Source: Malacoraja senta (Eukaryota). Taken from it: DNA of 64,000 bases. Position numbers and translations under genes: made by a program. The DNA is taken from assembly GCA_038087875.1 (NCBI GenBank), contig JAXLNO010005338.1, positions 1 through 64,000 of the forward strand, in the 5' to 3' direction. Position 1 is the first letter of the stretch. Each line of letters opens with the position of its first letter. Positions 22,134 to 62,210 of the stretch are shown here, in pieces. The notes beneath the pieces were generated by a model, which was given only the letters and a program-made list of their open reading frames with translations, was not told the DNA's origin and made no database searches.

Positions 22134-22437
22134 AATGGTTGGGGGGAGGGACTCGAATAGAGAATGCTATTAGACAGTGTGTGAGGCAGGAGGCAGAGAA
22201 GGAAAGCACTCAGACCCAACATGTAGGGGGGAAAGAAGAAAACAATAATAAACAGAGAATAAGAGGTGGTGGGGTTCTTAAATGGGAGAGCAGAGAAACA
22301 GAGGGGTGTAAAAGGCGGGCGGAAGCAATAGGTAGCAAGGTGAAAGGTAAAAGTGGCAGGCAGACAAATCCAGGGCAAAAATCAAAAAGAGCCACTTTTC
22401 AACATAATTGTATAAGGGGTAAGAGCGTTGTAAAAAC

Positions 22438-34800: not shown

Positions 34801-35589
34801 CCCCTTATACAATTATGTTGAAAAGTGGCTCTTTTTGATTTTTGCCCTGGATTTGTCTGCCTGCCACTTTTACCTTTCACCTTGCTACCTATTGCCTCCT
34901 GCCTCACACACTGTCTAATAGCATTCTCTATTTGAGTCCCTCCCCCCAACCATTCTAGTTTAAAGACTCCCCAGTAGCCTTTGCAGATCTCCCCGCCAGG
35001 ATATCGGTCCCCCTCAGGTTCAAGTGCAACCCATCCTTTTTGTACAGGTCGAACCTTCCACAAAAGAGGTCCCAATGATCCAGAAATTTGAATCCCTGCC
35101 TTCTGCACCAGTCCTTCAGCCACGCATTTATCCTCCACCTCGCTCCATTCCTACTCTCACTGTCGCGTGGTACAGGCAGTAATCCCGAGATTGTTACCTT
35201 TGCTGTCCTTCTCTTTAATTCCCCTCCTAACTCCCTAAATTCTCCTTTCAGGACCTCTTCTCTTTTTTTACCTATGTCATTGGTACCTATATGTATCACG
35301 ACCTCGGGCTCCTCTCCCTGCCCTTTCAGGATGTCTTGGACACGTTGAGACACATCACAGACCCTGGCACCAGGGAGGCAAACTACCATCCGGGTCTCCC
35401 GACTGCGTCCACAGAATCGCCTGTCTGACCTCCTAACTATAGAGTCCCCTATTAATATTGCCCTCCTCTTCTTTTCCTTACCCTTCTGAGCAACAGGCCC
35501 GGTCTCTATACCGGAAGCCCGGCCGCTGTCGCTACCCCCAGGTAGGCTGTCCACCCCAACAGTGCTCAAACAGGAGTACTTATTGTCAA
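31867..35589 (-). mobile_element. Young CR1 LINE, 5'-truncated within ORF1
   Basis: About 98-99% identical by eye to 21487-25346; (ACATAGAT)n tail at 31862-31890; inserted into a Penelope-derived terminus with ~8-bp TSD GGTAACAT (31859-31866, 35590-35597, partly microhomology). Confidence 0.97.
31971..34830 (-). CDS. CR1 ORF2, uninterrupted but with catalytic FADD changed to FADG
   Basis: Part of the 1055-aa minus ORF, with full EN and RT motifs; codon GGC (plus 32799-32801) replaces the GAC of the other copy. Confidence 0.9.
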
Positions 35590-35729
35590 GGTAACATCTC
35601 TGGAGAAAAGGAATAGGTGGCATTTCGGGTCGAGACCCTTCTTCACTCTGAAGTCTTCAGACAGTGCCCATCTATTTAGCTGCACAGCTTAACAATTGAT
35701 TTGTAAAATTATGCATTCTTATTTTTCAG

Positions 35730-39313: not shown

Positions 39314-42300
39314 TTTCTTTTAAAATCTTTTTATTGTTTTTTTTCCAAAAAACAAAAACAAAAATAAAAGATTAAAAACAGAGCAAAAAGAATAATGATA
39401 AACATAACAATGGTATTGATACATAGGGATCAGGATTAAACACATTAATAACAGGTATAACCTAATATGAGACCAGTGTCAAAATACACAATGAATATAG
39501 ACCTCTCGGTCCCTATGTAAATACAGGTAAATCTTTAAAAGGAAACATAATTTTTTTTTAAAAAGCAAAGATAAAAAGACAAAAAGAAAAAGAAAAAACA
39601 AAACCCCCCCTAAACTAAAAAAACGTTTTAAAAATTGATAATAATAAAATAAGAATAAAAATAAAATAAATAAATAAAACAAAACAGAGCAAAACCGAAT
39701 CTGAACTGAGAAATTCAACAATTTAAGTCTGTTTGTCGTCAAGTCCGTTCCACCCTATGAAGGTAAAATAATTTTTATAACGGTTAAAGAGGGATCAATT
39801 TATGTTGTATGAAAGTGTTCAATAAATTTTCCCCAAGTCTTATCAAATTTAACCAAGGGTTCAACAATGTCACTTCTGATTTTTTCTAAATTTAAACATG
39901 ATATCGTTTCAGAATACCACTGGAGTGTGGTCGGAGGGTTGGAATCTTTCCATTTAAAGAAAATAAATCTTCTGGCAATTAATGTGGTAAAAGCAATCAA
40001 CCGATGGGCGGAGTGGGACAAATGAATAGAATCTAACATTGGTAACCCAAAAATTGCAGTAATAGGATGAGGTTGTAAATCTATACCTAAGACTACAGAA
40101 ATAGTATCAAAAATATCTTTCCAATATTTTTCCAAAAGAGGGCAGGACCAAAACATATGGGTCAGTGATGCCACTTCAGAGTTACATCTGTCACAGGTAG
40201 GATTTATATGACCATAAAAACGAGCTAACTTATCTTTTGACATATGAGCTCTGTGGACCACCTTGAATTGTATCAAAGCGTGTCTTGCACACATTGAAGA
40301 GGTATTATCTAATTGAAGGATCCTCTCCCATTTCTCTATAGATAAAGACATTTGGAGTTCTCTTTCCCAGTCATTCTTAATTTTATCAAATGTATCTATT
40401 TGCAATTTTAAAATCAACTCATGAATAGTCGTTATTAATCCTTTCTGATAAGGGTTCAACTGTAAAAAAAATCCAAAATTTCGGGTTGATGTGGTAGCGG
40501 AAAAAGGGGTAGTCCCTTTTGTCTAATTTGTAAATATCTAAAAAAGTGTGAATTAGGTAAGTTATATTTATTGGAGAGTTGTTCGAAAGACATAAAACAA
40601 CCCTCCAAAAACAAATCACGAAAAGCTACTAATCCCTTCCTCTTCCATAACAAAAAAATTGATCAGTACTAGATGGTTGGAAGAGAAATTTGGATAAAAT
40701 CAGATAGTCCAAAAAACTTATGAAATTGAAACCGTATTCGGAACGTATGTCTTATTATTGGGTTCATCATATATTTATTCAATCTCGTAATTGTAAAAGG
40801 TAACGAGGCCCCTAGAATAGAAGCCAATTATAGCCCTTGTAAGGAATCACGTTCTAGGTTTATCCATCCAGGGCATTGGGTATCTTCTAAATCTTTTGTC
40901 CAAAATGTTAAATAACGAACATTGACTGCCCAATAGTAGAGTCTAAGGTTCGGCAATGCCAAACCACCAACTTTTTGATTTCTGTATGTATTTTTTACCT
41001 AGTCTGGGATTTTTATTCTGCCATATATATGAAGAAATTTTAGAGTCTATAATATCAAAGAAAGATTTGGCAATAAAAATTGGTATCGTCTGAAATAAAT
41101 ACAGAAATTTAGGTAAAATGAACATTTTAATAGCATTGATTCGGCCAATTAAGGATAAGGACATTGGTGACCATTTAGTGAACTGATGTTTAATGTGGTC
41201 AATTAAAGGAATAAAATTAGCTTTAAATAAATCCTTGTGTTTCTTGGTGATCTTAATACCTAAATAAGTAAAACTTTCAGTAGTCAATCTAAATGGAAGC
41301 TGTCCAGAACTCGAAACAAAATTATTTAATGGGAAAGCTCACTCTTACTAAGATTTAGTTTATAACCAGAAAAACTACTGAATTGATTAAGTAATGCTAC
41401 TATTGCCGGAATAGATTTCTCAGGATTAGAAATAAATAATAACAGATCATCTGCATAAAGAGATAGCTTATGTGTCTTATTCCCCCGGACAATACCAAAA
41501 ATATTAGGGGATTTCCTAATAGCAGTGGCTAACGTTTCCAAAGCAATATCAAATAGTAAAGGACTTAAGGGACAGCCCTGTCTAGTTTCTTGAAAGAGCC
41601 TGAAAAAAGGGGATCTCTGATTATTAGTAAATACAGAAGCCTGAGGTATAAGATATATCAGTTTGATCCAAGAGATAAATTTATTAGACGCTGTATATAC
41701 AATATTTATTAATCTCCTAACATTAAAGAATGAGTAACGATTTTTAATAAAACCTGTCTGATCTTCAGAGATAATTTGCAGTAAAATCTTTTCCAATCTC
41801 ATAGGTAATATTTTGGAAAGAATTTTAAAATCTACATTTAACATTGATATAGGTCTATATGATGTCACTTCAGTAGGGTCTTTATCTTTTTTTTAAATTA
41901 AAGAAATAGAAGCTTCATAAAAAGATTGTGGTAATCTATTCCTTAAAACAGGCTTATTTAAATACCTTGCATAGCCATGGAGACAATAAATTTGAGAAAT
42001 ACTTTAAAAATTCTACTGTAAACCCATCTAAACCGGGAGCTTTACCAGAATTCATTGAAAAAATGCTTTCTGTATTTCTTCTTCCGTGATGGGTTTATCT
42101 AACAACAGAGACTCATTATATGGTAAATTTGGTAAGTTCAGTTTCTTTAAAAACTCATGCATTATATTGGAATCAGTAGGAAAATCTGATTGGGATAGGG
42201 AGGTATAAAATTCCTGAAAGGATTTATTAATTTCGTCATGGTCTACGGTTACTGTACCATCCCGTTTACTCACTTTAGTAATCTGACGCTTGGCCGACAC

Positions 42301-43488
42301 TGCTTTCAATTGATTAGCAAGTCATTTACCAGATTTTTCGCCATTTATATAAAATTGACTTTTGGTTTTAAGTAACTGGTTCTCAATCGGTGATACTAAT
42401 AACAAATCATATCTCAATTGAAGTTCAACTCTATTCTTATAGAGCTCTAAACTAGGAGCTTTTGAATATTTTTTTATCAATTTCTTTAATCTCGTCAGCC
42501 AATGTGCGTATTTCTTTTTGTGTTTGTTTTTTTAATCCCGCAGAGTATGAAATAATTTGTCCACGAATATATGCCTTAAAAGCATCCCAAACTATACCAT
42601 TTTCTCTTCATTAGAGTTTGTCAAGAAGTAAAAAGCAATCTGATCTTTCATAAACTTAATAAAGTTTAAGTCTTGAAGCAAAGTAGCATTAAATCGCCAT
42701 TGTTTAGCACTAAACTTGGAATCAGGTAGTTTGATCAATAGTTTCACTGGTGCATGATCAGAAATAGCAATTGTATCATACTCACATGCAATGACCGATG
42801 GAACTAGCCGAGAATCTAGTATAAAATAGTCGATCCTAGAATAACTATGAAATACATGAGAGAAAAATGAAAATTCTTTGTCATTTGCGTGTAAGAATCT
42901 CCAAATTTCTAACATTCCCGAGTCAAGTAAAAAAGAATAAAATAAATTAGCTGATATATTTGGAAGCACATGATCAGATGTAGACCTATCAATCGAGGGA
43001 TTCAAACAGCAATTGAAGTCTCCATCCATTATTAAAAAGTGTTCATTTAAATTAGGAAAGGATGCAATTAACTGTTTAAAAAACTCAGGGTGATCAATAT
43101 TTGGTGCACAGACATTCACCAAAGCCACTTTTTGCCTAAAAAGGACAGCGGTAATCACCAAGAATCTGCCATATGGATCAGAAATTGTTTCATGGTGAAC
43201 AAACGGAATTGAGGGGTCGATAAAAATAGAGACTCCTTTCACCTTAGCCTGTGAATTTGAATGAAACTGCTGTCCTCTCCAAAACTTGAAAAATCGTGAC
43301 TTGTCATCTTGCCTTACATGAGTTTCCTGAACAAAGATAATCTGAGCATTTAGTCTGTGAAGAACTTTTTTTTTTAAATCCTCTTAATGGGATGGTTCAA
43401 GCCATTAACATTCCATGAAAGGAACTTTATCCATATTGCTTGTAAAAATCATGTGGGATGTAATGGGTTAATTTCTTGAAGCCTAAAA
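39314..43488 (-). mobile_element. L1 family B, 3' part (B1): decayed ORF2 + 3' UTR
   Basis: Minus frames give SWNVNGLNHP..QETH..GDFN..YSRIDYF..SDHAP..YRPISMLNVDFKIL..TRQGCPLSPLLF..LYADD..C.RC...ASLTHMFWSC; A-rich tail at ~39314-39350; multiple frameshifts and an internal RT deletion near 41685. Confidence 0.95.
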
Positions 43489-43505
43489 TGGGAATGGTAT
43501 ATACC

Positions 43506-46500
43506 AGAAAATAATTGCTTATTGATTATAATATTATAACCAATTGTAAGAACTTATACTATTAACAACTTAATAAGTTATGCAGGTTAGATTAGAATAC
43601 TAACAAAAACAAAAATAAAAAATAACGAACTAACATACTAATATGAATTTTTAATAAATTGAAACCTTATCTATAAGTGGGAGGAGGGGATGAGAAACGA
43701 GCACCTGGCTTAGGTCCAGGGGCACGTCTCGTTAACCCCTTCAACCAACAGTTGATTCTTATTGAAGTCAAAAGTATCGGTTTAATAATTAGTAGTTAAA
43801 ATTCCGATATATATATATGTTATAAGGAAATATCAGGGTAAAATTGTATTATATATCTGAATGTGAGGCCTCGTTTTAATATTTTAATATGTTATGATTA
43901 ACTAAGAGAGCGGAGCTATTTGAGTAACAACGCAATGGAAGTCAAAACAACGTTTTTTCCCACCTACAGGTGGGACACTCGCTACAGTGCCGACTATATC
44001 AGACACTGTAGCCTCACTTTTTTAGGTATTTTTTTACCACATAAAATCACTTGTTTGTGTTTTGTGTTTAGTGATAAGAGTAAAATGGACATACCAGCAA
44101 AAGTTAATAATTCCAAAACTCCCCCAATACCTAAAGACCTGGGACATGGACGCACCACAAGATTTAAAGGTACTATAATTATTCAAAATGCATGACACCA
44201 CACAAAAGAACCTAGGAGGAATCTCATTTTGTAGTTGGAATATAAGAGGTATTAACGAACCTATCAAAAGGGGTAAGATATTAGCTCAGCTAAAAATGTA
44301 CAATTCTGACATTACCTTCCTAAAAGAAACACACCTAAAACCTCAGGATCAAGTTAGGCTGAGGGCGAAATGGATAGGTCAAACATACCATTCTTCATTT
44401 ACTTCAAAATCTAGAGGCACGTCAATTATCATAAGAAAAGGTATACCATTTAAAGCAAAGAATATTATAACAGATATAGAAGGGAGATACCTAATAGTTA
44501 ATGGAGAAATCCATGACACTCCACTTACTTTGGTAAATATATATGCCCCTAACTTTGATAACCCCCACTTTTTCAATAAAATCTTCAATATAATTGCAGA
44601 GTCAAACTATCAAAATGTTATAATAGGCGGAGACTTTAACTGTGTTTTAGATCCGTACTTAGATAAATCAAGTCAAAAACAGAGAGGGAATATGAAATCG
44701 AAAACTGGGGAACTCCTCAATACCTATATAAATAACACTAATATAGCAGATGTTTGGAGAATTGTGAATCCAACTGGCAGGGAATATTCGTTTTACTCAA
44801 TGGTACATAAGACATACTCACGTATAGACTACTTTCTGCTGGATACAAAATTAATCCCCCAAACATCTAATGCAATATACCATACAAATTCAATTTCAGA
44901 CCATTCTCCACTAACTTTCTTTTTAAAACTGGAAGGATTGTCTAAGAATAAATCATTCTGGAGATTTAACTCTCAAATTTTAAAAGATCCACAAGCGAAT
45001 ATATATTTAAAAGAACAAATGGAGGTCTTTTTTCAAACAAATGATACTTCAGATATATCGCCTACTTTACTTTGGGAATCTTTTAAAGCATACATTAGGG
45101 GTATTATAATTTCATATCAAGCTTTTCAAAATAAAAAGAATAAGAATGAACAAAGACAGTTAGAAGAACTTATTAGACAAATGGATATAGATAATGCTAA
45201 AGATCCATCAATAGATAAACATAATAAAATAATAATTTTAAAATTTAAATTAAATAAATTATTATCTGCCAAACATATAAGACTTTTTCAAATTACAAAA
45301 CAAGAGCACTTTGAATTTGGGGATAAACCGCATAAACTTTTGGCTCGCCAGCTAAAAAAACGAGAAAAGGAACATACTATACCAAAGATCAAATCAGATA
45401 AAGGGGAATTATTAACAACACCGAAGGATATTAATAAAAGATTTGCGCAATTTTACGAGAATTTGTATACATCTAAAACGATAACTGATTCTAATAATAT
45501 CACAAAGTTCTTGGATACCTGTAATCTTCCAAAGTTAGAGCTGAGGGAACAAGAGGAATTGGGTGCACAAATTTCAATTAAGGAATTAGAAGATACAATA
45601 AACTCATTAAAGAATGGAAAAACACCAGGCCCTGATGGATTTACTAATGAATTTTATAAAAGCTTTTATGATAAAATAATACCAAGATTACAAAAAATGT
45701 ACCAATACGCTTTTAAAAAACGAATACTACCTGATACATTAGCGGAATCAACGATTACATTAATACCTAAGAAAAATAAAGATTTAGAAGAACCTGGCTC
45801 ATATAGAGCTATAGCATTGTTAAACACAGATCAAAAAATATTAGCGAAAACATTAGCTAGAAGATTAAGTAAATACATTAGTAAATTAATAAACCCAGAT
45901 CAGACAGGGTTTATCCCTAAGAGATACTCTTCTAATAATATGAGACGTCTACTCAACATAATGCACTAACACAAATCTGAAGATCAAGAATTATCAATTA
46001 TTTCGCTGGATGCTGAAAAAGCATTTGATCAAGTAGAATGGAATTATATGGATAAAGTATTACAAAAATTTCAACTGGGAGAGAATTTTATTTTATGGAT
46101 TAAGTTACTATATAACAAACCTACAGCTAGAATACTTACTAATAACATATTATCCTCGAAATTTCAACTATCAAGGGGAAATAGACAAGGATGCTCATTA
46201 TCACCACAGCTGTTTGCTCTCATTATTGAACCGCTAGCAGAAAAAATTATATTCATGGATATAATACTAAAGACTCATATAATAAAATATCTTTATACGC
46301 GGATGATATATTATTGTATATTACAAAACCTCAAATCACTATACCAAATATATTAAATTTAATTGAAGACTTCGGATCTTTTTCTGGATATAGAATAAAT
46401 TGGAATAAAAGTGAAATTATGTCAATAAAACCGAAAGATTCAACACATCTTTTAAAATTCCCTTTTAAAATAGCTACAGAAAAATTTAAATATTTGGGAA

Positions 46501-48317
46501 TCGAAATTACCAGAACATATCAAGGTATGTTCAGGGCAAATTTTGACCCCCTACTTATTAAACTGAATACATAAATTAAATTCTGGAAAACGCTCCCGAT
46601 GTCTTTAATAGGCCGAATAAACGCAATAAAAATGATCTTTTTACCACAAATTTTATACCTATTTCAATCAATTCCTATATACTTACCTAAGAAGTTTTTT
46701 AAAAAACTCGACTCAGATATCACTAATTTTATATGGGACTATAAATCACATAGAATACAAAAAACCCATCTGAATAAACCTAAAGTATTGGGGGGTCTAG
46801 CACTACCTAATTTTATGTATTATTACTGGTCAGTAAATATTAAAAACATGATTCAACTGATGGATAACTCCGTCCAGCAAGTAGACTGGATTGTAATGGA
46901 GAAAGAGGATTGCTCCTCTAGAAACATTGGAGCGATCCTCCTCTCTCCAATGAAACTGAATAACATAAATTATAATAAGAACCCAATTATTCATAGTACA
47001 ATCCGTATTTGGAAACAAATAAAACAAAATTTAAAATTAAGAAACTTATCACTTTTATTACCTATATTCAATAACCCTTCGTTTAGTCCTTCTATTATAG
47101 ATAAAGCTTATACACAATGGGATAGACTAGGAATTAAAACGCTTGGTGACTTGTATGAAACTGGAAAATTACTTCATTTCGACAATTACAAATAAAATAT
47201 AAACTCGGAAATAATCAATATTTTAAATATTTTCAAATATGCGACTATTTGAAAAAATATACAAAAGATCATTATAATAATCCAGTAGATGTATTGGACG
47301 AGGCAATGCAGATAAAAGCGGAATCAGCAAACTTAATATCATATTTGTATAATATTATTTTAAATGTACAAATACGACCTACGGAGGGTATCAGAAGAGA
47401 CTGGGAAGAAGAGTTAGCTATTAAAATTTCAAAGGAAAGTTGGAATGAATACTTATTAAACGTGCATAAATGCTCGATTAATGTAAGACACACTTTAATA
47501 CAATTTAAAATTTTACATAGATTATATTATTCGAAAACTAAAATTCATAAAATTTTCCCAAACGTATCATCTATTTGTGATAAATGTCAATCCCAAGAAG
47601 CAACTATAGCGCACTCATTTGTCTTCTGTACAAAAATTCAAAAATTTTGGAATGAAATTTTTGAAATCTTTACAAAGTTATTTAAAACAAGACTGATACC
47701 CAAAGCAGAATGGATTATCTTCGGAATAACGGAAGATGATCCAGAACTAAATGTGTTTCAAAAGAAATTAATGGACTATGGGTTAATAACTGGAAAAAAG
47801 CTAATTCTAAAATTTTGGAAGAAGGCTCCAATACCAACTATAAATATGTGGATTTCAAATATGTTTGAAACATTACACCTAGAAGAGATAAGACTCCTCC
47901 TAGCAGGTAAACCAGATCACTTCCACCTGACGTGGTCTGCATTTATAGAATTATTACAAATATAGGGTGCAAAAGTACTTTAAAAAAAATAAAAAATTGA
48001 GGTCAGGGGGATGATAGTTGAAGAGTTGGTATGTTCTATTTACGTGATGCTCAAAAAAAAACATTTGTTTCTTTTTTTTCTCTTTCTTTCTTCTTTTCTT
48101 GGGGCCTATTTCTTAATTTTCTACACTTTTCTACACTTGCACTTTTTCCTTCATTTTCTTCTTTCTTTCAATCTTTTCCTTTTCTAGTGTAAAAAAACAA
48201 ATAAAGGGAGTACATTAATTGTAAGAAGATATAAATGACGAGTATTAATGTATGTGGCTGTAATGTAATGTACTTCTAATAAATAAAAATTTAAAAAAAA
48301 ACAAAAAAAAAAAAAAA
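43506..48317 (+). mobile_element. L1 family A copy A1, 5'-truncated in the inter-ORF spacer
   Basis: Spacer + ORF2 (44188-47965, frameshifted: SWNIRGIN..ETH..GDFN..SRIDY..SDH..PGPDG..SLDAEKAFD..RQGC..YADD..CDKC) + AATAAA + poly(A). Confidence 0.97.
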
Positions 48318-49845
48318 TCATATATTTATTCAATCTCGTAATTGTAAAAGGTAACGAGGCCCCTAGAATAGAAGCCAATTATAGCCCTTGTAAGGAATCA
48401 CGTTCTAGGTTTATCCATCCAGGGCATTGGGTATCTTCTAAATCTTTTGTCCAAAATGTTAAATAACGAACATTGACTGCCCAATAGTAGAGTCTAAGGT
48501 TCGGCAATGCCAAACCACCAACTTTTTTGATTTCTGTATGTATTTTTTACCTAGTCTGAGATTTTTATTCTGCCATATATATGAAGAAATTTTAGAGTCT
48601 ATAATATCAAAGAAAGATTTGGCAATAAAAATTGGTATCGTCTGAAATAAATACAGACATTTAGGTAAAATGAACATTTTAATAGCATTGATTCGGCCAA
48701 TTAAGGATAAGGACATTGGTGACCATTTAGTGAACTGATGTTTAATGTGGTCAATTAAAGGAATAAAATTAGCTTTAAATAAATCCTTGTGTTTCTTGGT
48801 GATATTAATACCTAAATAAGTAAAACTTTCAGTAGTCAATCTAAATGGAAGCTGTCCAGAACTCGAAACAAAATTATTTAATGGGAAAGCTCACTCTTAC
48901 TAAGATTTAGTTTATAACCAGAAAAACTACTGAATTGATTAAATAATGCTACTATTGCCGGAATAGATTTCTCAGGGTTAGAAATAAATAATAACAGATC
49001 ATCTGCATAAAGAGATAGCTTATGTGTCTTATTCCCCCGGACAATACCAAAAATATTAGGGGATTTCCTAATAGCAGTGGCTAACGTTTCCAAAGCAATA
49101 TCAAATAGTAAAGGACTTAAGGGACAGCCCTGTCTAGTTTCTTGAAAGAGCCTGAAAAAAGGGGATCTCTGATTATTAGTAAATACAGAAGCCTGAGGTA
49201 TAAGATATATCAGTTTGATCCAAGAGATAAATTTATTAGACGCTGTATATACAATATTTATTAATCTCCTAACATTAAAGAATGAGTAACGATTTTTAAT
49301 AAAAACCTGTCTGATCTTCAGAGATAATTTGCAGTAAAATCTTTTCCAATCTCATAGGTAATATTTTGGAAAGAATTTTAAAATCTACATTTAACATTGA
49401 TATAGGTCTATATGATGTCACTTCAGTAGGGTCTTTATCTTTTTTTAAATTAAAGAAATAGAAGCTTCATAAAAAGATTGTGGTAATCTATTCCTTAAAA
49501 AAGGCTTCTTTAAATACCTTGCATAGCCATGGAGACAATAAATTTGAGAAATACTTTAAAAATTCTACTGTAAACCCATCTAAACCGGGAGCTTTACCAG
49601 AATTCATTGAAAAAATGCTTTCTGTATTTCTTCTTCCGTGATGGGTTCATCTAACAACAGAGACTCATTATATGGTAAATTTGGTAAGTTCAGTTTCTTT
49701 AAAAACTCATGCATTATATTGGAATCAGTAGGAAAATCTGATTGGGATAGGGAGGTATAAAATTCCTGAAAGGATTTATTAATTTCGTCATGGTCTACGG
49801 TTACTGTACCATCCCGTTTACTCACTTTAGAAATCTGACGCTTGG
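48318..49845 (-). mobile_element. L1 family B duplicate (B2a), copy of 40767-42293
   Basis: About 11 differences in ~1.5 kb versus B1 by eye; shares the same RT deletion. Confidence 0.95.
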
Positions 49846-50038
49846 GACTTCCGGTGGCGTCATGTTAGACTAACAGACGTGCACCCAGCTCCTCTCCCGA
49901 AAAACTTCACGATTTATCGTGTAAAACGGGTCCGAAAATCGGGATTGTTTTTAAAAACCTTACCGGAGCTTCTGGTTACCGCGCTGATGACGTCATCGTT
50001 AAACGCGATGTTTTAAACGGTGGTTTGAAGCCCTTTAA

Positions 50039-51100
50039 ATGAGTATTTTGACTCCAGCTGTGAGCCCTCAGAGAGCTGTGAATAAGCTGTCGAAAAAGTT
50101 CGAAACAGAAGTTACCTCTGAAGTCTCTGAAGTGGCTGCAGAAATGTCTAAGAAAGACTTTGATGATTTGAACAAATCAATGAAAAATTTGAAAGATGAG
50201 ATCTCGGATAATAGGGTGGAAGATAAGAAGGAAATGAAGGAAAATTCGGTAAAAATGATGGAAGGAATGGAGAAGATGATGAAGGATTTAAATGCTGGTA
50301 ACCAGAAGAATATGACGGATTTACTGGACATTATGAATAAACGAATTGATGAGGTGAAAGATGGACTATCAGAGAAAATGGATAAGATGGATGTAATTAC
50401 TACGGATAAGTTCACGGCTGTACTTGAAACAGTAGCTGCAAGTATGCAGACAATTACGGAAATGGAGAAAAATACGGCTCGACTGGTTGAAGACATGGCG
50501 AAATTGAGGCAAGAACATGAGCAAATGAGGCGAGAAAACGAACAAGCATCACTACAAATGGGGACTCAATTAGAGAAAGTCTCATTCAAATGCCTGGACC
50601 TGGAAGCTCGTTCTGGACGCCAGAATTTGAGAATTCTTGGTGTTTCAGAGGGGACAGAAGGAGAACAGGTACGTGAATTTGCCATGGGCTTGTTGAAACA
50701 ACTGTTGAATCTTCCCAAGGAACCGAACATCGAAGTGGCTCATCGTGTCCCAAGATTTGGAAAAAGATTTGATGCGGCAAAAGCTTATCCACGACATATT
50801 ATAGTGAAATTTCGAGATACTGCAGAACTGGAATACGTTATGACTAAAATCAAATATGGTGTACAATTACGGCTGGACAAAGACACTATTAAGATATTCA
50901 GGGACTACCCACATGAAATTGTGCAAAAAAGAAATACATTTGATAAGGTTAAAGATCTTTTAAGAGGGAGAGAAGGGGTCAGATTTGGGTTTTTTTATCC
51001 CGCGAAAATGCGTATTTCTTTTAATGGTCTTGAAAAGTCAATTGTTAAGCCTGAAGACGCTTTCAAATATGCCCAAACAATTGTTGAAAAACAGAAATAA
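50039..51100 (+). CDS. L1 ORF1p (coiled coil + RRM + CTD), 353 aa, open
   Basis: Heptad-rich N-terminal half, then LEARSGRQNLRILGVSEG..EVAHRV..RHIIVKF..IFRDY..FFYPAKMRI, matching L1 ORF1p motifs. Confidence 0.92.
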   Translation: MSILTPAVSPQRAVNKLSKKFETEVTSEVSEVAAEMSKKDFDDLNKSMKNLKDEISDNRVEDKKEMKENSVKMMEGMEKMMKDLNAGNQKNMTDLLDIMNKRIDEVKDGLSEKMDKMDVITTDKFTAVLETVAASMQTITEMEKNTARLVEDMAKLRQEHEQMRRENEQASLQMGTQLEKVSFKCLDLEARSGRQNLRILGVSEGTEGEQVREFAMGLLKQLLNLPKEPNIEVAHRVPRFGKRFDAAKAYPRHIIVKFRDTAELEYVMTKIKYGVQLRLDKDTIKIFRDYPHEIVQKRNTFDKVKDLLRGREGVRFGFFYPAKMRISFNGLEKSIVKPEDAFKYAQTIVEKQK

Positions 51101-51655
51101 AAGGGAGCTTTGGCAGATCCGAATAATTCTCAGCTATGTTTTGTCTGGGGATAGTTACATTGTTATCTCTGGAATGTTGAAGCAAGGACATTTTCTGTTC
51201 AAAACGTGTAATCAACTTTATAGCTGGATATGAATTAGAAAATAATTGCTTATTGATTAAAATGTTATAACCAATTGTAAGAACTTATCCTATTAACAAC
51301 TTTAAAAGTTATGCAGGTTAGATTAGAATACTAACAAAAAAAACAAAAAAATAATGAACTAACATACTAATATGAATTTTTAATAAATTGTAACCTTGTC
51401 TATAAGCGGGAGGAGGGGATGAGAAACGAGCTCCTGGCTTATGTCCAGGAGCACGTCTCGTTAACCCCTTCAACCAACAGCTGATTCTTATTGAAATCAA
51501 AAATATTGGTTTAATAATTAAACTCTGATATATATATATGTTATAAGGAAATATCAGGGTAAAATTGTATTATATATCTGAATGTGAGGCCTCGTTTTAA
51601 TATTTTAATATGTTATGATTAACTAAGTGAGCGGAGCGAGTTGAGCAACATCGCA

Positions 51656-51913
51656 ATGGAAGTCAAAATAAGGTTTTTTCCCACCTACAGGTGGGTCACT
51701 CGCTACAGTGCCGACTATAGACACTGTAGCCTCACTTTTTTAGTTTTTTTTTTATCACATAAAATCACTTGTTTGTGTTTTGTGTTTAGTGATAAGAATA
51801 ATATGGACATACCAACAAAAGTTAATAATTCAAAAACTCCCCCAATACCTAAAGACCTGGGATATGGACGCACCACAAGATTCAAAGGTACTATAATTAT
51901 TCAAAATGCATGA
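51656..51913 (+). CDS. Candidate small spacer ORF overlapping the ORF2 start (85 aa; also 43935-44195 and 57767-58027)
   Basis: GCAATGG strong Kozak context; open in all three A copies; stop TGA overlaps the ORF2 ATG as ATGCATGA. Coding status unproven. Confidence 0.35.
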   Translation: MEVKIRFFPTYRWVTRYSADYRHCSLTFLVFFLSHKITCLCFVFSDKNNMDIPTKVNNSKTPPIPKDLGYGRTTRFKGTIIIQNA

Positions 51914-54900
51914 CACCACACAAAAGAACCTAGGAGGAATCTCATTTTGTAGTTGGATTATAAGAGGTATTAACGAACCTATCAAAAGGGGTAAGATATT
52001 AGCTCAGCTAAAAATGTATAATTCTGACATTACCTTCCAACAAGAAACACACCTAAAACCTCAGGACCAAGTTAGGCTGAGGGCGAAATGGATAGGTCAA
52101 ACATACCACTCTTCATTCACTTCAAAATCTAGAGGCACGTCAATTATCATAAGAAAAGGTATACCATTTAAAGCAAAGAATATTATAACAGATATAGAAG
52201 GGAGATACCTAATAGTTAATGGAGAAATCCATGACACTCCACTTACTTTGGTAAATATATATGCCCCTAACTTTGATAACCCCCACTTTTTCAATAAAAT
52301 CTTCAATATAATTGCAGAGTCAAACTATCAAAATGTTATAATAGGCGGAGACTTTAACTGTGTTTTAGATCCGTACTTAGATAAATCAAGTCAAAAACAG
52401 AGAGGGAATATGAAATCGAAAACTGGGGAACTCCTCAATACCTACATAAATAACACTAATATAGCAGATGTTTGGAGAATTGTGAATCCAACTGGCAGGG
52501 AATATTCGTTTTACTCAATGGTACATAAGACATACTCACGTATAGACTACTTTCTGCTGGATACAAAATTAATTCCCCAAACATCTAATGCAATATATCA
52601 TACAAATTCAATTTCAGACCATTCTCCACTAACTTTCTTTTTAAAACTGGAAGGATTGTCTAAGAATAATTCATTCTGGAGATTTAACTCTCAAAATTTA
52701 AAAGATCCACAAGCGAGTATATATTTAAAAGAACAAATGGAGGTCTTTTTTCAAACAAATGATACTTCAGATATATCGCCTACTTTACTTTGGGAATCTT
52801 TTAAAGCATACATTAGGGGTATTATAATTTCATATCAAGCTTTTCAAAATAAAAATAATAAGAATGAACAAAGACAGTTAGAAGAACTTATTAGACAAAT
52901 GGATATAGATAATGCTAAAGATCCATCAATAGATAAACATAATAAAATAATAATTTTAAAATTTAAATTAAATAAATTATTATCTGCCAAACTTATAAGA
53001 CTTTTTCAAATTACAAAACAAGAGCACTTTGAATTTGGGGATAAACCGCATAAACTTTTGGCTCGCCAGCTAAAAAAACGAGAAAAGGAACATACTATAC
53101 CAAAGATCAAATCAGATAAAGGGGAATTATTAACAACACCGAAGGATATTAATAAAAGATTTGCGCAATTTTACGAGAATTTGTATACATCTAAAACGAT
53201 AATTGATTCCAATAATATCACAAAGTTCTTGGATACCTGTAATCTTCCAAAGTTAGAGCTGAAGAAACAAGAGGAACTGGGTGCACAAATCTCAATTAAG
53301 GAATTAGAAGATACAATAAACTCACTAAAAAATGGAAAAACACCAGGCCCTGATGGATTTACTAATGAATTTTATAAAAGCTTTTATGATAAAATAATAC
53401 CGATTACAAAAAATGTACCAATACGCTTTTAAAAAACGAATACTACCTGATACATTAGCGGAATCAACGATTACATTAATACCTAAGAAAAATAAGGATT
53501 TAGAAGAACCTGGCTCATATAGAGCTATAGCATTGTTAAACACAGATCAAAAAATATTAGCGAAAACATTAGCCAGAAGATTAAGTAAATACATTAGTAA
53601 ATTAATAAACCCATATCAGACAGGGTTTATCCCTAAGAGATACTCCTCTAATAATATGAGACGTCTACTCAACATAATGCACTCACACAAATCTGAAGAT
53701 CAAGAATTATCAATTATTTCGCTGGATGCTGAAAAAGCATTTGATCAAGTAGAATGGAATTATATGGATAAAGTATTACAAAAATTTCAACTGGGAGAGA
53801 ATTTTATTTTATGGATTAAGTTACTATATAACAAACCTACAGCTAGAATACTTACTAATAACATATTATCCTCGAAATTTCAACAACCAAGGGGAAATAG
53901 ACAAGGATGCTCATTATCACCACAGCTGTTTGCTCTCATTATTGAACCGCTAGCAGAAAAAATTATAATACACCCTGATATTCATGGATATAATACTAAA
54001 GACTCATATAATAAAATATCTTTATACGCGGATGATATATTATTGTATATTACAAAACCTCAAATCACTATACCAAATATATTAAATTTAATTGAAGACT
54101 TCGGATCTTTTTCTGGATATAGAATAAATTGGAATAAAAGTGAAATTATGTCAATAAAACCGAAAGATTCAACACATCTTTTAAAATTCCCTTTTAAAAT
54201 AGCTACAGAAAAATTTAAATATTTGGGAATCGAAATTACCAGAGCATATCAAGGTATGCTCAGGGCAAATTTTGACCCCCTACTTAATAAACTGAATACA
54301 TTAATTAAATTCTGGAAAACGCTTCCGATGTCTTTAATAGGCCGAATAAACGCAATAAAAATGATCTTTTTACCACAAATTTTATACCTATTTCAATCAA
54401 TTCCTATATACTTACCTAAGAAGTTTTTTTAAAAAACTCGACTCAGATATCACTAATTTTATATGGGACTATAAATCACATAGAATACAAAAAACCCATC
54501 TGAATAAATCTAAAGTATTGGGGGGTCTAGCACTACCTAATTTTATGTATTATTATTGGTCAGTAAATATTAAAAACATGATTCAACTGATGGATAACTC
54601 CGCCCAGCAAGTAGACTGGATTGTAATGGAGAAAGAGGATTGCTCCTCTAGAAACATTGGAGCGATCCTCCTCTCTCCAATGAAATTGAATAACATAAAC
54701 TATAATAAGAACCCAATTATTCATAGTACAATCCGTATTTGGAAACAAATAAAACAAAATTTAAAATTAAGAAACTTATCACTTTTATTACCTATAGTCA
54801 ATAACCCTTCGTTTAGTCCTTCTATTATAGATAAAGCTTATACACAATGGGATAGACTAGGAATTAAAACGCTTGGTGACTTGTATGAAACTGGAAAATT

Positions 54901-55696
54901 ACTTTCATTTCAACAATTACAAATAAAATATAAACTCGGAAATAATCAATATTTTAAATACTTTCAAATATGCGACTATTTGAAAAAATATATAAAAGAT
55001 CATCATAATAACCCAGCAGATGTACTGGACGAAGCAATGCAGATAAAAGCGGAATGAGCAAACTTAATATCATAGTTGTACAATATTATCTTAAATGCAC
55101 AAATACCATCTACGGAGGGTATCAGAAGAGACTGGGAACAAGAGTTAGCTATTAAAATTTCAAAGGAAAGTTGGAATGAATACTTATTAAAAGTGCATAA
55201 ATGCTCGATTAATGTAAGACACACTTTAATACAATTTAAAATTTTACATAGATTATATTATTCGAAAACTAAAATTCATAAAATTTTCCCAAACGTATCA
55301 TCTATTTGTGATAAATGTCAATCCCAAGAAGCAACTATAGCGCACTCATTTGTCTTCTGTACAAAAATTCAAAAATTTTGGAATGAAATTTTTGAAATCT
55401 TTACAAAGTTATTTAAAACAAGACTGATACCCAAAGCAGAATGGATTATCTTCGGAATAACGGAAGATGATCCAGAATTAAATGTGTTTCAAAAGAAATT
55501 AATGGATTATGGGTTAATAACTGGAAAAAAGCTAATTCTAAAATTTTGGAAGAAGGCTCCAATACCAACTATAAATATGTGGATTTCAAATATGTTTGAA
55601 ACATTACACCTTGAAGAGATAAGACTCCTCCTAGCAGGTAAACCAGATCACTTCCACCTGACGTGATCTGCATTTATAGAATTATTACAAACATAG
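51906..55696 (+). pseudogene. L1 ORF2 of A2 (EN + RT + C-terminal Cys domain), disrupted
   Basis: Consecutive ORF-track pieces 51906..53432, 53413..54432, 54518..55057 and 55076..55666, separated by frameshifts and premature TGA codons. Confidence 0.95.
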
Positions 55697-56106
55697 GGTG
55701 CAAAAGTACTTTAAAAAAAAATAAAAAATTGAGGTCGGGTAAGGGGGGATGATAGTTGAAGAGTTGGTATGTCCTATTTACGTGATGCTCAAAAAAAAAA
55801 CATTTGTTTCTCTTTTTTTTCTCTTTCTCTTTTCTTTTCTTAGGGCCTATTTCTTAACTCTTTTTCTTTTTGTTTTTAATTTCGCTCTTATAGGGTCTTC
55901 GTCCTTTTTTGTTGTTACATTTTCTACACTTTTCTACACTTGCACTTTTTCCTTCACTTTCTTCTCTCTTTCAATCTTTTCTTTCTCTAGTGTAAAAAAA
56001 TAAATAAAGGGAGTACATTAATTGTAAGATGATATAAATGACGAGTATTAATGTATGTGGTTGTAATGTAATGTACTTCTAATAAATAAAAATTAAAAAA
56101 AAAAAA

Positions 56107-57319
56107 AGAAATCTGACGCTTGGCCGACACTGCTTTCAATTGATTAGCAAGTAATTTACCAGATTTTTCGCCATTTATATAAAATTGACTTTTGGTTTTA
56201 AGTAACAGGTTCTCAATCGGTGATACTAATAACAAATCATATCTCAATTGAAGTTCAACTCTATTCTTATAGAGCTCTAAACTAGGAGCTTTTGAATATT
56301 TTTTTATCAATTTCTTTAATCTCGTCAGCCAATGTGCGTATTTCTTTTTGTGTTTGTTTTTTTAATCCCGCAGAGTATGAAATAATTTGTCCACGAATAT
56401 ATGCCTTAAAAGCATCCCAAACTATACCATTTTCTCTTCATTAGAGTTTGTCAAGAAGTAAAAAGCAATCTGATCTTTCATAAACTTAATAAAGTTTAAG
56501 TCTTGAAGCAAAGTAGCATTAAATCGCCATTGTTTAGCACTAAACTTGGAATCAGGTAGTTTGATCAATAGTTTCACTGGTGCATGATCAGAAATAGCAA
56601 TTGTATCATACTCACATGCAATGACCGATGGAACTAGCCGAGAATCTAGTATAAAATAGTCGATCCTAGAATAACTATGAAATACATGAGAGAAAAATGA
56701 AAATTCTTTGTCATTTGCGTGTAAGAATCTCCAAATTTCTAACATTCCCGAGTCAAGTAAAAAAAGAATAAAATAAATTAGCTGATATATTTGGAAGCAC
56801 ATGATCAGATGTAGACCTATCAATCGAGGGATTCAAACAGCAATTGAAGTCTCCATCCATTATTAAAAAGTGTTCATTTAAATTAGGAAAGGATGCAATT
56901 AACTGTTTAAAAAACTCAGGGTGATCAATATTTGGTGCACAGACGTTCACCAAAGCCACTTTTTGCCTAAAAAGGACAGCGGTAATCACCAAGAATCTGC
57001 CATATGGATCAGAAATTGTTTCATGGTGAACAAACGGAATTGAGGGGTCGATAAAAATAGAGACTCCTTTCACCTTAGCCTGTGAATTTGAATGAAACTG
57101 CTGTCCTCTCCAAAACTTGAAAAATCGTGACTTGTCATCTTGCCTTACATGAGTTTCCTGAACAAAGATAATCTGAGCATTTAGTCTGTGAAGAACTTTT
57201 TTTTAAAAATCCTCTTAATGGGATGGTTCAAGCCATTAACATTCCATGAAAGGAACTTTATCCATATTGCTTGTAAAAATCATGTGGGATGTAATGGGTT
57301 AATTTCTTGAAGCCTAAAA
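56107..57319 (-). mobile_element. L1 family B duplicate (B2b), copy of 42277-43488
   Basis: Continues B2a exactly across the A2 TSD; about 5 differences from B1. Confidence 0.95.
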
Positions 57320-57336
57320 TGGGAATGGTATATACC

Positions 57337-60300
57337 AGAAAATAATTGCTTATTGATTATAATATTATAACCAATTGTAAGAACTTATCCTATTAACAAC
57401 TTAATAAGTTATGCAGGTTAGATTAGAATACTAACAAAAACAAAAATAAAAAATAACGAACTAACATACTAATATGAATTTTTAATAAATTGAAACCTTA
57501 TCTATAAGTGGGAGGAGGGGATGAGAAACGAGCACCTGGCTTAGGTCCAGGGGCACGTCTCGTTAACCCCTTCAACCAACAGTTGATTCTTATTGAAGTC
57601 AAAAGTATCGGTTTAATAATTAGTAGTTAAAATTCCGATATATATATATGTTATAATGAAATATATAGGGTAAAATTGTATTATATATCTGAATGTGAGG
57701 CCCCGTTTTAATCTTTTAATATGTTATGATTAACCAAGAGAGCGGAGCTATTTGTGTAACAACGCAATGGAAGTCAAAACAAGGTTTTTTCCCACCTACA
57801 GGTGGGACACTCGCTATAGTGCCGACTATATCAGACACTGTATCTTCACTTTTTTAGTTTTTTTTTTATCACATAAAATCACTTGTTTGTGTTTTGTGTT
57901 TAGTGATAAGCGTAAAATGGACATACCAGCAAAACTTAAAAACTCAAAAGCTCCCCCAATACCTAAAGACCTGGGATATGGATGCACCACAAGATTCAAA
58001 GGTACTATAATTATTCAAAATGCATGACACCACACAAAAGAACCTAGGAGGAATCTCATTTTGTAGTTGGAATATAAGAGGTATTAACGAACCTATTAAA
58101 AGGGGTAAGATACTAGCTCAGCTGAAACTGTACAACTGCGACATTACCTTCCTACAAGAAACACACCTAAAACCTCAGGATCAAGTTAGGTTGAGGGCGA
58201 AATGGAGAGGTCAAACATACCATTCTTCATTTACTTCAAAATCTAGAGGCACGTCAATCATCATAAGAAAAGGTATACCATTTAAAGCAAAGAATATCAT
58301 AACAGATATAGAAGGGAGATACCTAATAGTTAATGGAGAAATCCATGACACTCCACTTACTTTGGTAAATATATATGCCCCTAACTTTGATAACCCCCAC
58401 TTTTTCAATAAAATTTTCAACATAATTGCAGAGTCAAACTATCAAAATGTTATAATAGGAGGAGACTTTAACTGTGTTTTAGATCCGTACTTAGATAAAT
58501 CAAGTCAAAAACAGAGAGGGAATATGAAATCGAAAACTGGGGAACTTCTCAATTCCTATATAAACAACACTAATATAGCAGATGTTTGGAGAATTGTTAA
58601 TCCAACTGGCAGGGAATACTCGTTTTACTCAATGGTACATAAGACATACTCACGTATAGACTACTTTCTGCTGGATACAAAATTAATCCCCCAAACATCT
58701 AATGCAATATACCACACAAACTCGATTTCAGACCATTCTCCACTAACTTTCTTTTTAAAACTGGAAGGATTGTCTAAGAATAAATCGTTTTGGAGATTTA
58801 ATTCTCAAATTCTAAAAGATCCACAAGCGAGTATATATTTAAAAGAACAAATGGAGGTCTTTTTTCAAATAAATGATACTCCAGATATATCGCCTACTGT
58901 ATTATGGGAATCTTTCAAAGCATACATTAGGGGTATTATAATTTCATATCAAGCTTTTCAAAATAAAAAGAATAAGAATGAACAAAGACAGTTAGAAGAA
59001 CTTATTAGACAAATGGATATAGATAATGCTAAAGATCCATCAATAGATAAACATAATAAAATAATAATTTTGAAATTTAAATTAAATAAATTATTATCTG
59101 CCAAACTTATAAGACTTTTTCAAATTACAAAACAAGAGCACTTTGAATTTGGGGATAAACCGCATAAACTTTTGGCTCGCCAGCTAAATAAACGAGAAAA
59201 GGAACATACTATACCAAAGATCAAATCAGATAAAGGGGAATTATTAACAACACCGAAGGATATTAATAAAAGATTTGCGCAATTCTATGAGAATTTGTAT
59301 ACATCTAAAACGACAATTGATTCCAATAATATCACAAAGTTCTTGGATACCTGTAATCTTCCAAAGTTAGAGCTGAAGGAACAAGAGGAACTGGGTGCAC
59401 AAATCTCAATTAAGGAATTAGAAGATACAATAAACTCACTAAAGAATGGAAAAACACCAGGCCCTGATGGATTTACTAATGAATTTTATAAAAGCTTTTA
59501 TGATAAAATAATACCAAGATTACAAAAAATGTACCAATATGCTTTTAAAAAACGAATACTACCTGATACATTAGCGGAATCAACGATTACACTAATACCT
59601 AAGAAAAATAAAGATTTAGAAGAACCTGGTTCATATAGAGCTATAGCATTGTTAAACACAGATCAAAAAATATTAGCGAAAACATAAGCTAGAAGATTAA
59701 GTAAATACATTAGTAAATTAATAAACCCAAATCAGACGGGGTTTATCCCTAAGAGATACTCTTCTAACAATATGAGACGTCTACTCAACATAATGCCCTC
59801 ACATAAATCTGAAGATCAAGAATTATCAATTATTTTGCTGGATGCTGAAAAAGCATTTGATCAAGTAGAATGGAATTATATGGACAAAGTATTAGAAAAA
59901 TTTCAACTGGGAGAGAATTTTATTCTATGGATTAAGTTACTATATAACGAACCTACAGCTAGAATACTAACTAATAACATATTATCCTCGAAATTCCAAC
60001 TATCAAGGGGAAATAGACAAGGATGCTCATTATCACCACAGCTGTTTGCTCTCATTATTGAACCGCTAGCAGAAAAAATTAGAATACACCCTGATATCCA
60101 TGGATATAATACTAAAGACTATATAATAAAATATCTTTATACGCGGACGATATATTACTGTACATTACAAAACCTCAAATCACTATACCAAATATATTAA
60201 ATTTAATTGAAGACTTTGGATCTTTTTCTGGATATAGAATAAATTGGAATAAAAGTGAAATTATGTCAATAAAACCGAAAGATTCAACACATCTTTTAAA

Positions 60301-62210
60301 ATTCCCTTTTAAAATAGTTACAGAAAAATTTAAATATTTGGGAATCGAAATTACCAGAACATATCAAGGTATGTTTAGGGCAAATTTTGACCCCCTACTT
60401 AATAAATTAAACACACTAATTAAATTCTGGAAAACGCTCCCGATGTCTTTAATAGGCCGAATAAACGCAATAAAAATGATCTTTTTACCACAAATTTTAT
60501 ACCTATTTCAATCAATTCCTATATACTTACCAAAGAAGTTTTTTTAAAAACTCGACTCAGATATCACTAATTTTATATGGGACTATAAATCACATAGAAT
60601 ACAAAAAACTCATCTGAATAAACCTAAAGTATTAGGGGGTTTAGCACTACCTAATTTTATGTATTATTATTGGTCAGTAAATATTAAAAACATGATTCAA
60701 CTGATGGATAACTCCGCCCAGCAAGTGGACTGGATTGTAATGGAGAAAGAGGATTGCTCCTCTAGAAACATTGGAGCGATCCTCCTTTCTCCAATGAAAT
60801 TGAATAACATAAATTATAATAAGAACCCAATTATTCATAGTACAATCCGAATTTGGAAACAAATAAAACAAAATTTAAAATTAAGAAATTTATCACTTTT
60901 ATTACCTATAGTCAATAAACCTTCGTTTAATCCTTCTATTATAGATAAAGCTTATACACAATGGGATAGACTAGGAATTAAAACGCTTGGTGACTTGTAT
61001 GAAACTGGAAAATTACTTTCATTTCAACAATTACAAATAAAATATAAACTCGGAAATAATCAATATTTTAAATATTTTCAAATATGCGACTATTTGAAAA
61101 AATATACAAAAGAGCATTATAATAACCCAGTAGATGTATTGGACGAGGCAATGCAGATAAAAGCGGAATCAGCAAACTTAATATCATATTTGTATAATAT
61201 TATCTTAAATGTACAAATACCATCTACGGAGGGTATCAGAAGAGACTGGGAACAAGAGTTAGCTATTAAAATGTCAAAGGAAAGTTGGAATGAATACTTA
61301 TTAAACGTGCATAAATGCTCGATTAATGTAAGACACACTTTAATACAATTTAAAATTTTACATAGATTATATTATTCGAAAATTAAAATTCATAAAATTT
61401 TCCCAAATGTATCATCTATTTGTGATAAATGTCAATCCCAAGAAGCTACTATAGCGCACTCATTCGTTTTCTGTACAAAAATTCAAAAATTTTGGAATGA
61501 AATTTTTGAAATCTTTACAAAGTTATTTAAAACAAGACTGATACCCAAAGCAGAATGGATTATCTTCGGAATAACGAAAGATGGTCCAGAACTAAATGTG
61601 TTTCAAAAGAAACTAATGGACTATTGGTTAATAACTGGAAAAAAGCTAATTCTAAAATTTTGGAAGAAGGCTCCAATACCAACTATAAATATGTGGATTT
61701 CAAATATGTTTGAAACATTACACCTAGAAGAGATAAGACTCCTCCTAGCAGGTAAACCAGATCACTTCCACCTGACGTGGTCTGCATTTATAGAATTATT
61801 ACAAACATAGGGTGCAAAAGTACTTTAAAAAAATTAAAAAAATTGAGGTCAGGTAAAGGGGGATGATAGTTGAAGAGTTGGTATGTCCCATTTACGTAAT
61901 GCTCATAAAAATATTTGTTTCTCTTTTTTTCCTCTTTCTCTTTCTCTTTTTTTCCTAGGGCCTATTTCTTAACTCTTTTTCTTTTGTTTTTAATTTTGCT
62001 CTTATAGGTACTTCGTCCTTTTTTGTTGTCACATTTTCTACACTTTCACTTTTTCCTTCACTTTCTTCTTTCTTTCAATCTTTTCCTTTTCTAGTGTAAA
62101 AAATAAAGGGAGTACATTAATTGTAAGAAGATATAAATGACGAGTACTAATGTATGTGGTTGTAATGTAATGTACTTCTAATAAATAAAAATTAAAAAAA
62201 AACAAAAAAA
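57337..62210 (+). mobile_element. L1 family A copy A3, 5'-truncated in the spacer
   Basis: Same 5' junction and 17-nt filler as A1; ORF2 58020-61810 is frameshifted; poly(A) ends at ~62210. Confidence 0.97.

Follow-up and report, generated by a model that had tools for sequence, protein, structure and literature searches.

In this study, we analyzed a 64,000-nucleotide (nt) stretch of the genome of the skate Malacoraja senta (contig JAXLNO010005338.1, positions 1 to 64,000, hereafter the window) and found that its L1 retrotransposons of family A carry a third, small open reading frame (ORF) in the long spacer between ORF1 and ORF2, ending at the ORF2 start codon. An earlier note on this DNA had proposed that this ORF relays ribosomes to ORF2 through a virus-type termination upstream ribosome-binding site (TURBS) with a UGGGA motif. 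A third ORF ending beside the ORF2 AUG recurs in sister and distant families, and as a sequence pattern this partly supports a relay by termination-reinitiation, whereas the TURBS part of the proposal did not hold. The feature is real and broader than first reported, and a ribosome shunt over ORF1 combined with a relay would be its best explanation, with the arguments for and against about evenly balanced in our judgment.

The small ORF and its conservation

The three small ORFs were found on the forward strand where they had been described, at 43935-44195 (copy 1, 86 amino acids), 51656-51913 (copy 2, 85 codons from an AUG, stopping at +5 relative to the ORF2 AUG) and 57767-58027 (copy 3, 86 amino acids). 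All begin in the context GCA-ATG-G and end in ATGCATGA, overlapping the ORF2 ATG. Their in-frame length difference of 3 nt was confirmed and falls within the loop of hairpin 2, a conserved structure (below). Although all three copies are present, they represent just two insertions: 42277-48116 and 56107-61972 are 97% identical over 5.9 kb, and this duplication carries copies 1 and 3, a single 5'-truncated insertion (copy 1 is truncated near 43506) without ORF1 or 5' untranslated region (UTR).

Relatives were collected with a motif pattern around the ORF start and follow-up genome searches, giving 147 distinct segments that formed 9 clusters at 89% identity and 10 groups after A was split from A'; family A' was found in this way, a 27-nt pattern having no exact match in the genome. 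Representatives of these groups (the A clade) are 55-89% identical to one another. Two of the 147 segments were dropped for a mis-anchored ORF2 ATG, and 2 of 23 copies of the distant family C for want of an anchor. A conserved start, ACG/ATG-GAA-GTC, whose first codon is ATG in groups A and A' but in the others usually ACG, opens a frame of 77-93 codons that passes 2-6 further AUGs and stops within -16 to +11 nt of the ORF2 AUG: at -9 in c1, c3, c4 and c6, at -13/-16 in c2, at +5 in A and at +11 in A'. Scoring a copy as open when the frame reaches within 25 nt of the ORF2 AUG, we found the frame from the homologous codon open in copies of 7 of the 10 groups, namely A 23/23 (a selected set), A' 9/24, c1 3/30, c2 16/26, c3 4/16, c4 2/11 and c6 2/4, and in none of c5 (0/7), c7 (0/2) or c8 (0/2). 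Two control frames gave 0-2 open copies per group. An ORF2 stretch of equal length is open in 9/24 A', 19/30 c1, 21/26 c2, 6/16 c3 and 6/7 c5 copies; the small-ORF frame thus decays like ORF2 in A', c2 and c3, and far worse in c1 and c5. Majority spacers read open in A, A', c2, c4 and family C, and for all 7 A-clade groups with at least 7 copies the majority length belongs to the open-frame class. The frame is also open in all 30 genomic copies closest to copy 2, which add little evidence because they were picked by identity. The earlier note proposed checking whether frame and overlap are retained in related families. The frame is, in 7 of the 10 groups and two distant families (B and C, below); the +5 overlap occurs only in A and B. 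Most copies of c1 and c5 are closed.

An open frame this long from the fixed start was obtained in 22 of 3000 dinucleotide shuffles, and the shuffle nulls are 0.3-2% per A-clade family. When neutral substitution was simulated on the tree, without indels and with open copies chosen by the analyst as leaves, none of 4500 replicates kept all 7 other leaves open, and at least 2 leaves stayed open in 1-7% of replicates, depending on the root. The ratio of nonsynonymous to synonymous substitution (dN/dS), proposed earlier as a check for values below 1, was 0.4-1.6 over 28 pairs of small ORFs, near 1, and only 26-100% of aligned columns are in the same frame, with frames shifting internally between families; purifying selection on the peptide was thus not detected in these pairs. 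These two results indicate that openness, not the peptide, is what is kept, and the peptide is, as judged by comparison of the copies, unconstrained. The conserved content inside the small ORF, by the same comparison, is two hairpins. Hairpin 1 (51680-51695, CCACC-loop-GGTGG) is nearly invariant and lies 20-24 nt 3' of the start codon, and hairpin 2 (51702-51730) has 9-12 bp with arms that co-vary between families. Together they reach z -4.5 to -6.2 in 6 copies, with two-sided changes in 6 of 14 pairs of a 10-row alignment in which some rows are misregistered. We consider it likely that the small frame is translated and selected. The second in-frame ATG (MDIP) noted earlier is present, although specific to family A (22/23 A copies vs 1/24 A' copies). 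Stop readthrough into ORF2 was rejected, since the small ORF and ORF2 lie in different frames in A, A', c2, B and C.

Family B is distant from the A clade, with an endonuclease about 33-40% identical. Its -1 frame stays open for 116-127 codons in 7/36 copies, of which 5 end at +5 (AUG-GA-UAA) and 2 at -4; with a strong in-frame ATG some 250 nt upstream taken as the start, a choice made post hoc, 10/36 copies are open vs 0 in controls. An open run of the family B length was matched by 17 of 5000 shuffles. The B spacer (window 62697-62674, minus strand) contains in sense a GTCACTT/CTGGCTCCGCCC-type motif that we take to resemble a promoter (ETS/Sp1-like); it lies within the relay frame of B, roughly 100 nt 5' of ORF2. 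In family C, a 77-codon frame from an upstream in-frame ATG, chosen after the frame was seen, ends at +8 and is open in 10/21 copies; TTG-GAA-GTC was rejected as its start, being closed at the modal length. The C spacer is unusually stop-poor: in L271, L274 and L286 the -1 frame is open for 130-160 codons 5' of ORF2 and a second frame for 79 codons.

Copy 2 alone retains the 5'UTR and ORF1, beginning at 49846. Its ORF1 (50039-51100) is intact with 353 amino acids, the inter-ORF spacer (51101-51905) measures 805 nt, as against the roughly 800 nt reported, and ORF2 starts at 51906 with a first open piece to 53432 and continues in more pieces. Assignment to the L1 clade follows from PF02994 for ORF1 (L1 RBD-like domain, E=4e-4, slightly below cut-off) and from PF03372, PF14529 and a partial PF00078 for ORF2, the domains of the APE endonuclease and the reverse transcriptase being matched in copy 1. 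The relay ORF of copy 2 had no match in Pfam, to which the protein search was limited, a profile search with PF17490 found no match, and the ORF2 N-terminus had no relatives in the viral or metagenome contigs searched. Within the 5.9-kb duplication the upstream flank is near-identical and the small-ORF region more diverged, a sequence pattern that suggests recombination between L1 copies. Tracts of the type T(n)A(m) in the spacer (L110-L190) and in c2 ORF2 vary widely between copies in their T/A boundary, often at constant length, creating TAA stops, as expected of a hypermutable type of site. Two further long interspersed nuclear elements (LINEs) lie at 21135-25248 and 31971-35623, one with an open ORF2 of 912 amino acids; both are presumably CR1-like (esterase-like ORF1, endonuclease and reverse transcriptase in ORF2).

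Predicted pairing between the 5' end and the spacer

Full-length copies begin with GACTTCCGG; an AUG follows near +17, with a stop 2-3 codons further on. Such an upstream ORF (uORF) of 2-3 codons is present in 54 of 57 distinct 5' ends, with variable codons and stop; 5 of 20 A loci were dropped for want of a 5' end. The first 8 nt of the element are complementary to CGGAAGTC at the small-ORF start (helix a), and a 17-nt segment located 8-10 nt 3' of the uORF stop is complementary to a spacer segment that ends 12-13 nt 5' of the small-ORF start (helix b). In copy 2, the 5' end of the element (GACTTCCG, 49846-49853) forms the 5' arm of predicted helix a, whose 3' arm lies within the first 9 nt of the relay ORF; the cap-proximal uORF of 3 codons (M-L-D-stop) occupies 49862-49873, and the predicted arms of helix b are 49883-49899 (GCTCC motif) and 51627-51643 (GGAGC motif). 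The family-A 5'UTR also contains a second uORF of 9 codons (49987-50016), and the ORF1 AUG of this family has a weak -3 context.

Helix b is paired at 16-17 of 17 positions in c1, c2, c4 and c6, and its arms change together between groups: TTTAGCTCC/GGAGCTAAA in c2, TTGAGCTCC/GGAGCTCAA in c1 and TTTACCTCC/GGAGGTAAA in c4 and c6. Family B has a different 5' end, with a 17-bp partner directly 5' of its ATG (16-17/17, G.U counted). The non-Watson-Crick positions of helix b in 11 copies, which are related and owe much of their G.U to family B, comprise 22 G.U, 3 A.C and 10 others; this excess of G.U over A.C favours pairing of sense-strand RNA. When the first 60 nt were scanned against 300-490 overlapping segments, the segment before the small-ORF start was the best partner in 16 of 24 full-length copies, and in the remaining 8 copies 2-14 segments paired better. 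Of 5 whole minimum free energy (MFE) folds of 1.5-2.2 kb, 4 contain both helices, including that of copy 2 (1.9 kb), where helix a pairs with 51658-51664 and helix b at 49886-49894. We regard the duplex between 5' end and spacer as very probably real; it is predicted to loop out ORF1. Together with the uORF, it is our candidate answer, from modelling, to how the small ORF is started.

Plausible model and rival explanations

Short 5' uORFs, a helix, a UA-rich landing site and a non-AUG start make up the shunt layout of cauliflower mosaic virus (CaMV), rice tungro bacilliform virus (RTBV) and rice tungro spherical virus (RTSV), as described in the accessible part of PMC5902531. The skate L1s are alike in their 5'-proximal short uORF (54/57 5' ends), which stops 8-10 nt before a predicted helix with two-sided changes in 7 A-clade copies (not clear in B), and in an A/U-rich stretch of 12-13 nt followed by ACG or AUG near the stem. 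In contrast, the viral stem closes a leader, whereas the L1 duplex would, by prediction, enclose in its loop an entire ORF of 1 kb and the spacer (1.3-2.1 kb), and here the host element is a non-LTR (long terminal repeat) retrotransposon.

Considering these results, we propose a plausible model for translation of ORF2. The 40S subunit would scan from the cap, translate the uORF, a layout that is seen in the copies and whose translation is presumed, and stop 8-10 nt before helix b. Some ribosomes would go on scanning to ORF1, and others may cross the base of helix b to the A/U-rich landing site about 1.8 kb downstream; covariation supports the duplex, and the shunt itself is suggested by analogy with CaMV and RTBV. 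Initiation would follow 12-13 nt past the landing at ACG (AUG in A and A'), possibly aided by hairpin 1 about 20 nt downstream. Elongation would then pass through hairpins 1 and 2 and over the 2-6 further AUGs, producing a disposable peptide, and the stop within -16 to +11 nt of the ORF2 AUG would allow reinitiation without a UGGGA tether. For the whole chain, from shunt over ORF1 to reinitiation at ORF2, which rests on modelling and analogy, we see equal chances of its being right or wrong.

Several observations weigh against the model. The frame is open in 3/30 c1 and 0/7 c5 copies, vs 19/30 and 6/7 for the equal length of ORF2. The majority spacers of both groups are interrupted by 1-2 stops, the first of which falls at a variable T/A tract; the c1 and c5 masters may therefore have stopped after about 29 codons. 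The c3 majority spacer has one internal stop, the modal length of c4 (2/11 open) is off-frame, and no open copy occurs in c7 or c8 (0/2 each). A control frame of family C is open in 11/21 copies, as often as the candidate frame; family C therefore does not discriminate. In family B the duplex involves nt 1-19, which lie 5' of the uORF, and the global MFE fold does not contain it. Pairing is at its weakest in A and A' (13/17 pairs), the lineages with AUG instead of ACG at the small-ORF start, and there shows no own-family preference in a cross matrix; in 15 further A copies, 1-37 of about 350 segments pair better, and A, c1 and C give similar energies for pairing on the opposite strand. The predicted landing site falls 250 nt short of ORF2, a distance the model leaves without explanation, and we found no conserved element that could tether the 40S for reinitiation once an 80-codon ORF has been translated.

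The duplex may instead be an RNA switch (turning translation off, assembling the ribonucleoprotein or protecting the 5' end), with the third ORF a repressive or by-product uORF and ORF2 reached otherwise. Helix a takes in both the 5'-terminal 8 nt and the start codon of the small ORF, the 17-bp duplex of family B is cap-proximal and the peptide is unconstrained, all of which suit a switch; the fixed uORF length, the fixed spacings of 8-10 and 12-13 nt, and a stop that tracks the ORF2 AUG through several frame changes would be left unexplained, and we consider a switch unlikely, though the most credible of the alternatives. Less likely still is a cap-independent internal ribosome entry site (IRES), built from the hairpins and U-rich tracts, that starts the small ORF or ORF2 directly. 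The hairpins are conserved and covarying, and IRESs have been predicted in silico for most long vertebrate L1 spacers (PMC5381506, as far as accessible), yet the hairpins lie inside the ORF, 3' of its start, Rfam gave one weak chance-level match and nothing more, and an IRES would need neither pairing with the 5' end nor a uORF.

We consider it improbable that structured, U/C-rich sequence merely yields the open frame as a by-product, with the match between 5' end and spacer being a DNA motif (an inverted promoter copy). In favour of this reading, T-rich tracts are stop-poor, family C has two open frames, copies of c1 and c5 are mostly closed, and the 5' motif has been described as a transcription-factor site (PMC5381506, accessible part); the shuffle nulls and tree simulation above, the family-specific two-sided changes, the G.U excess and the different motif pair of B all speak against it.

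We think it very improbable that a calicivirus-type TURBS, in which UGGGA acts with 2/2* pairing, drives reinitiation. The TGGGA (44140, 51858-51862 and 57972) and AGGT (51886) lie where the earlier note placed them. The UGGGA of family A is 48 nt 5' of the stop, inside the 40-90 nt range given in the accessible part of PMC5972666, the 8-nt overlap falls in its range of 1-14 nt, and stop and start are adjacent or overlapping throughout (A and B +5, A' +11, C +8, others -9 to -16). However, within 90-20 nt of the ORF2 AUG, TGGGA occurs in 23/23 A copies and in 2/179 copies of all other groups, so it is not conserved at 40-90 nt upstream in diverged families; it is a family-A-specific variant of a TRAGG/TGAGA site, which reads TGAGA, TGAGG, TAAGG or CAAGG elsewhere, and the nearest sister A' keeps the same ORF with TGAGA/TGAGG. 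Its chance occurrence in a 70-nt window is 2.6% (20000 mononucleotide shuffles). The GGT partner is missing in six groups (c1, c4, c5, c6, B and C), and no stable 2/2* stem was found: the last 78 nt before ORF2 have no stable fold (z +1.4), and the last 130 nt of the spacer (z +1.5) and the whole 3' spacer (z -0.9) fold no better than shuffles. Beside this site, GCACC at 51869-51873 and its homologues, about 38 nt 5' of the ORF2 AUG, are near-invariant in 12 A-clade representatives, most of which have AGGTA just 5' of it; GCACC is a candidate reinitiation element.

A spliced ORF2 mRNA using a polypyrimidine/AG acceptor in the spacer is, in our view, the least probable reading. Family A has acceptor-like sites near 51690 and 51788, which would suit it. 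Against it, the AG of the first site forms the loop of hairpin 1 and does not occur in c4 or c6, most other families have AAG at the second, and neither is among the 4 joints listed for four contig runs on 49800-52400 (contigs not recorded as RNA).

Other vertebrate L1s and known systems

We compared 5' ends with spacers by eye in the supplement of PMC5381506, where full sequences are available to 400 letters. Helix-b matches of about 9-22 bp are clear in zebrafish L1-1B, 7C, 13A, 13B and 16B and in frog L1-11, and weak or ambiguous in L1-6, 7B and 13D. Short uORFs are visible in the zebrafish and frog 5' ends, and the frame is open from near the partner to ORF2 in 1B, 7C, 13A, 13B and frog L1-11, and not in 16B. 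These spacers are T-rich and were read rather than computed, and the pairing is offered as a lead. An ATG-GAA-GTC in an elephant L1 spacer of the same supplement closes after a few codons and is probably due to chance.

Reinitiation was called risky in the available text of PMC5381506, in which the terms 'third ORF', 'short ORF' and 'complementary' do not occur. In a megabat L1 with a long spacer, removal of AUGs from the spacer reduced mobility about 3.3-fold (PMC4072516, accessible part), a result that fits, by analogy, a relay through spacer ORFs. Mammalian L1 and SART1 are similar in that ORF2 is thought to need nearby upstream termination (review PMC5972666, as available), and the megabat case in that spacer AUGs aided mobility; in them ORF1, or small ORFs that are not specified, serve as the upstream ORF, whereas skate L1s carry one conserved frame of 80-90 codons with its own predicted entry route. 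The Pol shunt of duck hepatitis B virus likewise reaches a reverse transcriptase ORF from near the 5' end of a bicistronic retroelement RNA, although it lands near the Pol AUG from a take-off site left undefined, with no relay ORF or long-range duplex described (PMC5902531, accessible part). Caliciviruses and influenza B virus share the stop and restart within a few nt (PMC5972666, accessible part), whereas the L1s do not conserve UGGGA or 2/2*, also have stops as far as 16 nt upstream and make no conserved protein from the upstream ORF.

In the open-access literature searched (Repbase reports and bioRxiv supplements lay outside the search), we found no published description of a shunt combined with a relay in L1. 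How ORF2 is translated across spacers of 300-1000 nt was left open in the L1 literature (PMC5381506, as far as available), and the duplex, mini-uORF and relay frame are exact, mutable elements that make this question directly testable. If true, the model would account for a conserved GCTCC motif described from the 5'UTRs of frog L1s, and it would put a shunt of viral type into a retrotransposon of animals. We tentatively speculate, with somewhat more doubt than confidence, that the long-spacer L1s of fish, frogs and cartilaginous fish use a two-step relay, from a shunt over ORF1, based on the duplex and a cap-proximal mini-uORF, to a non-AUG throwaway ORF and on to ORF2. Such a relay may be ancestral in L1 and have been lost where spacers became short.

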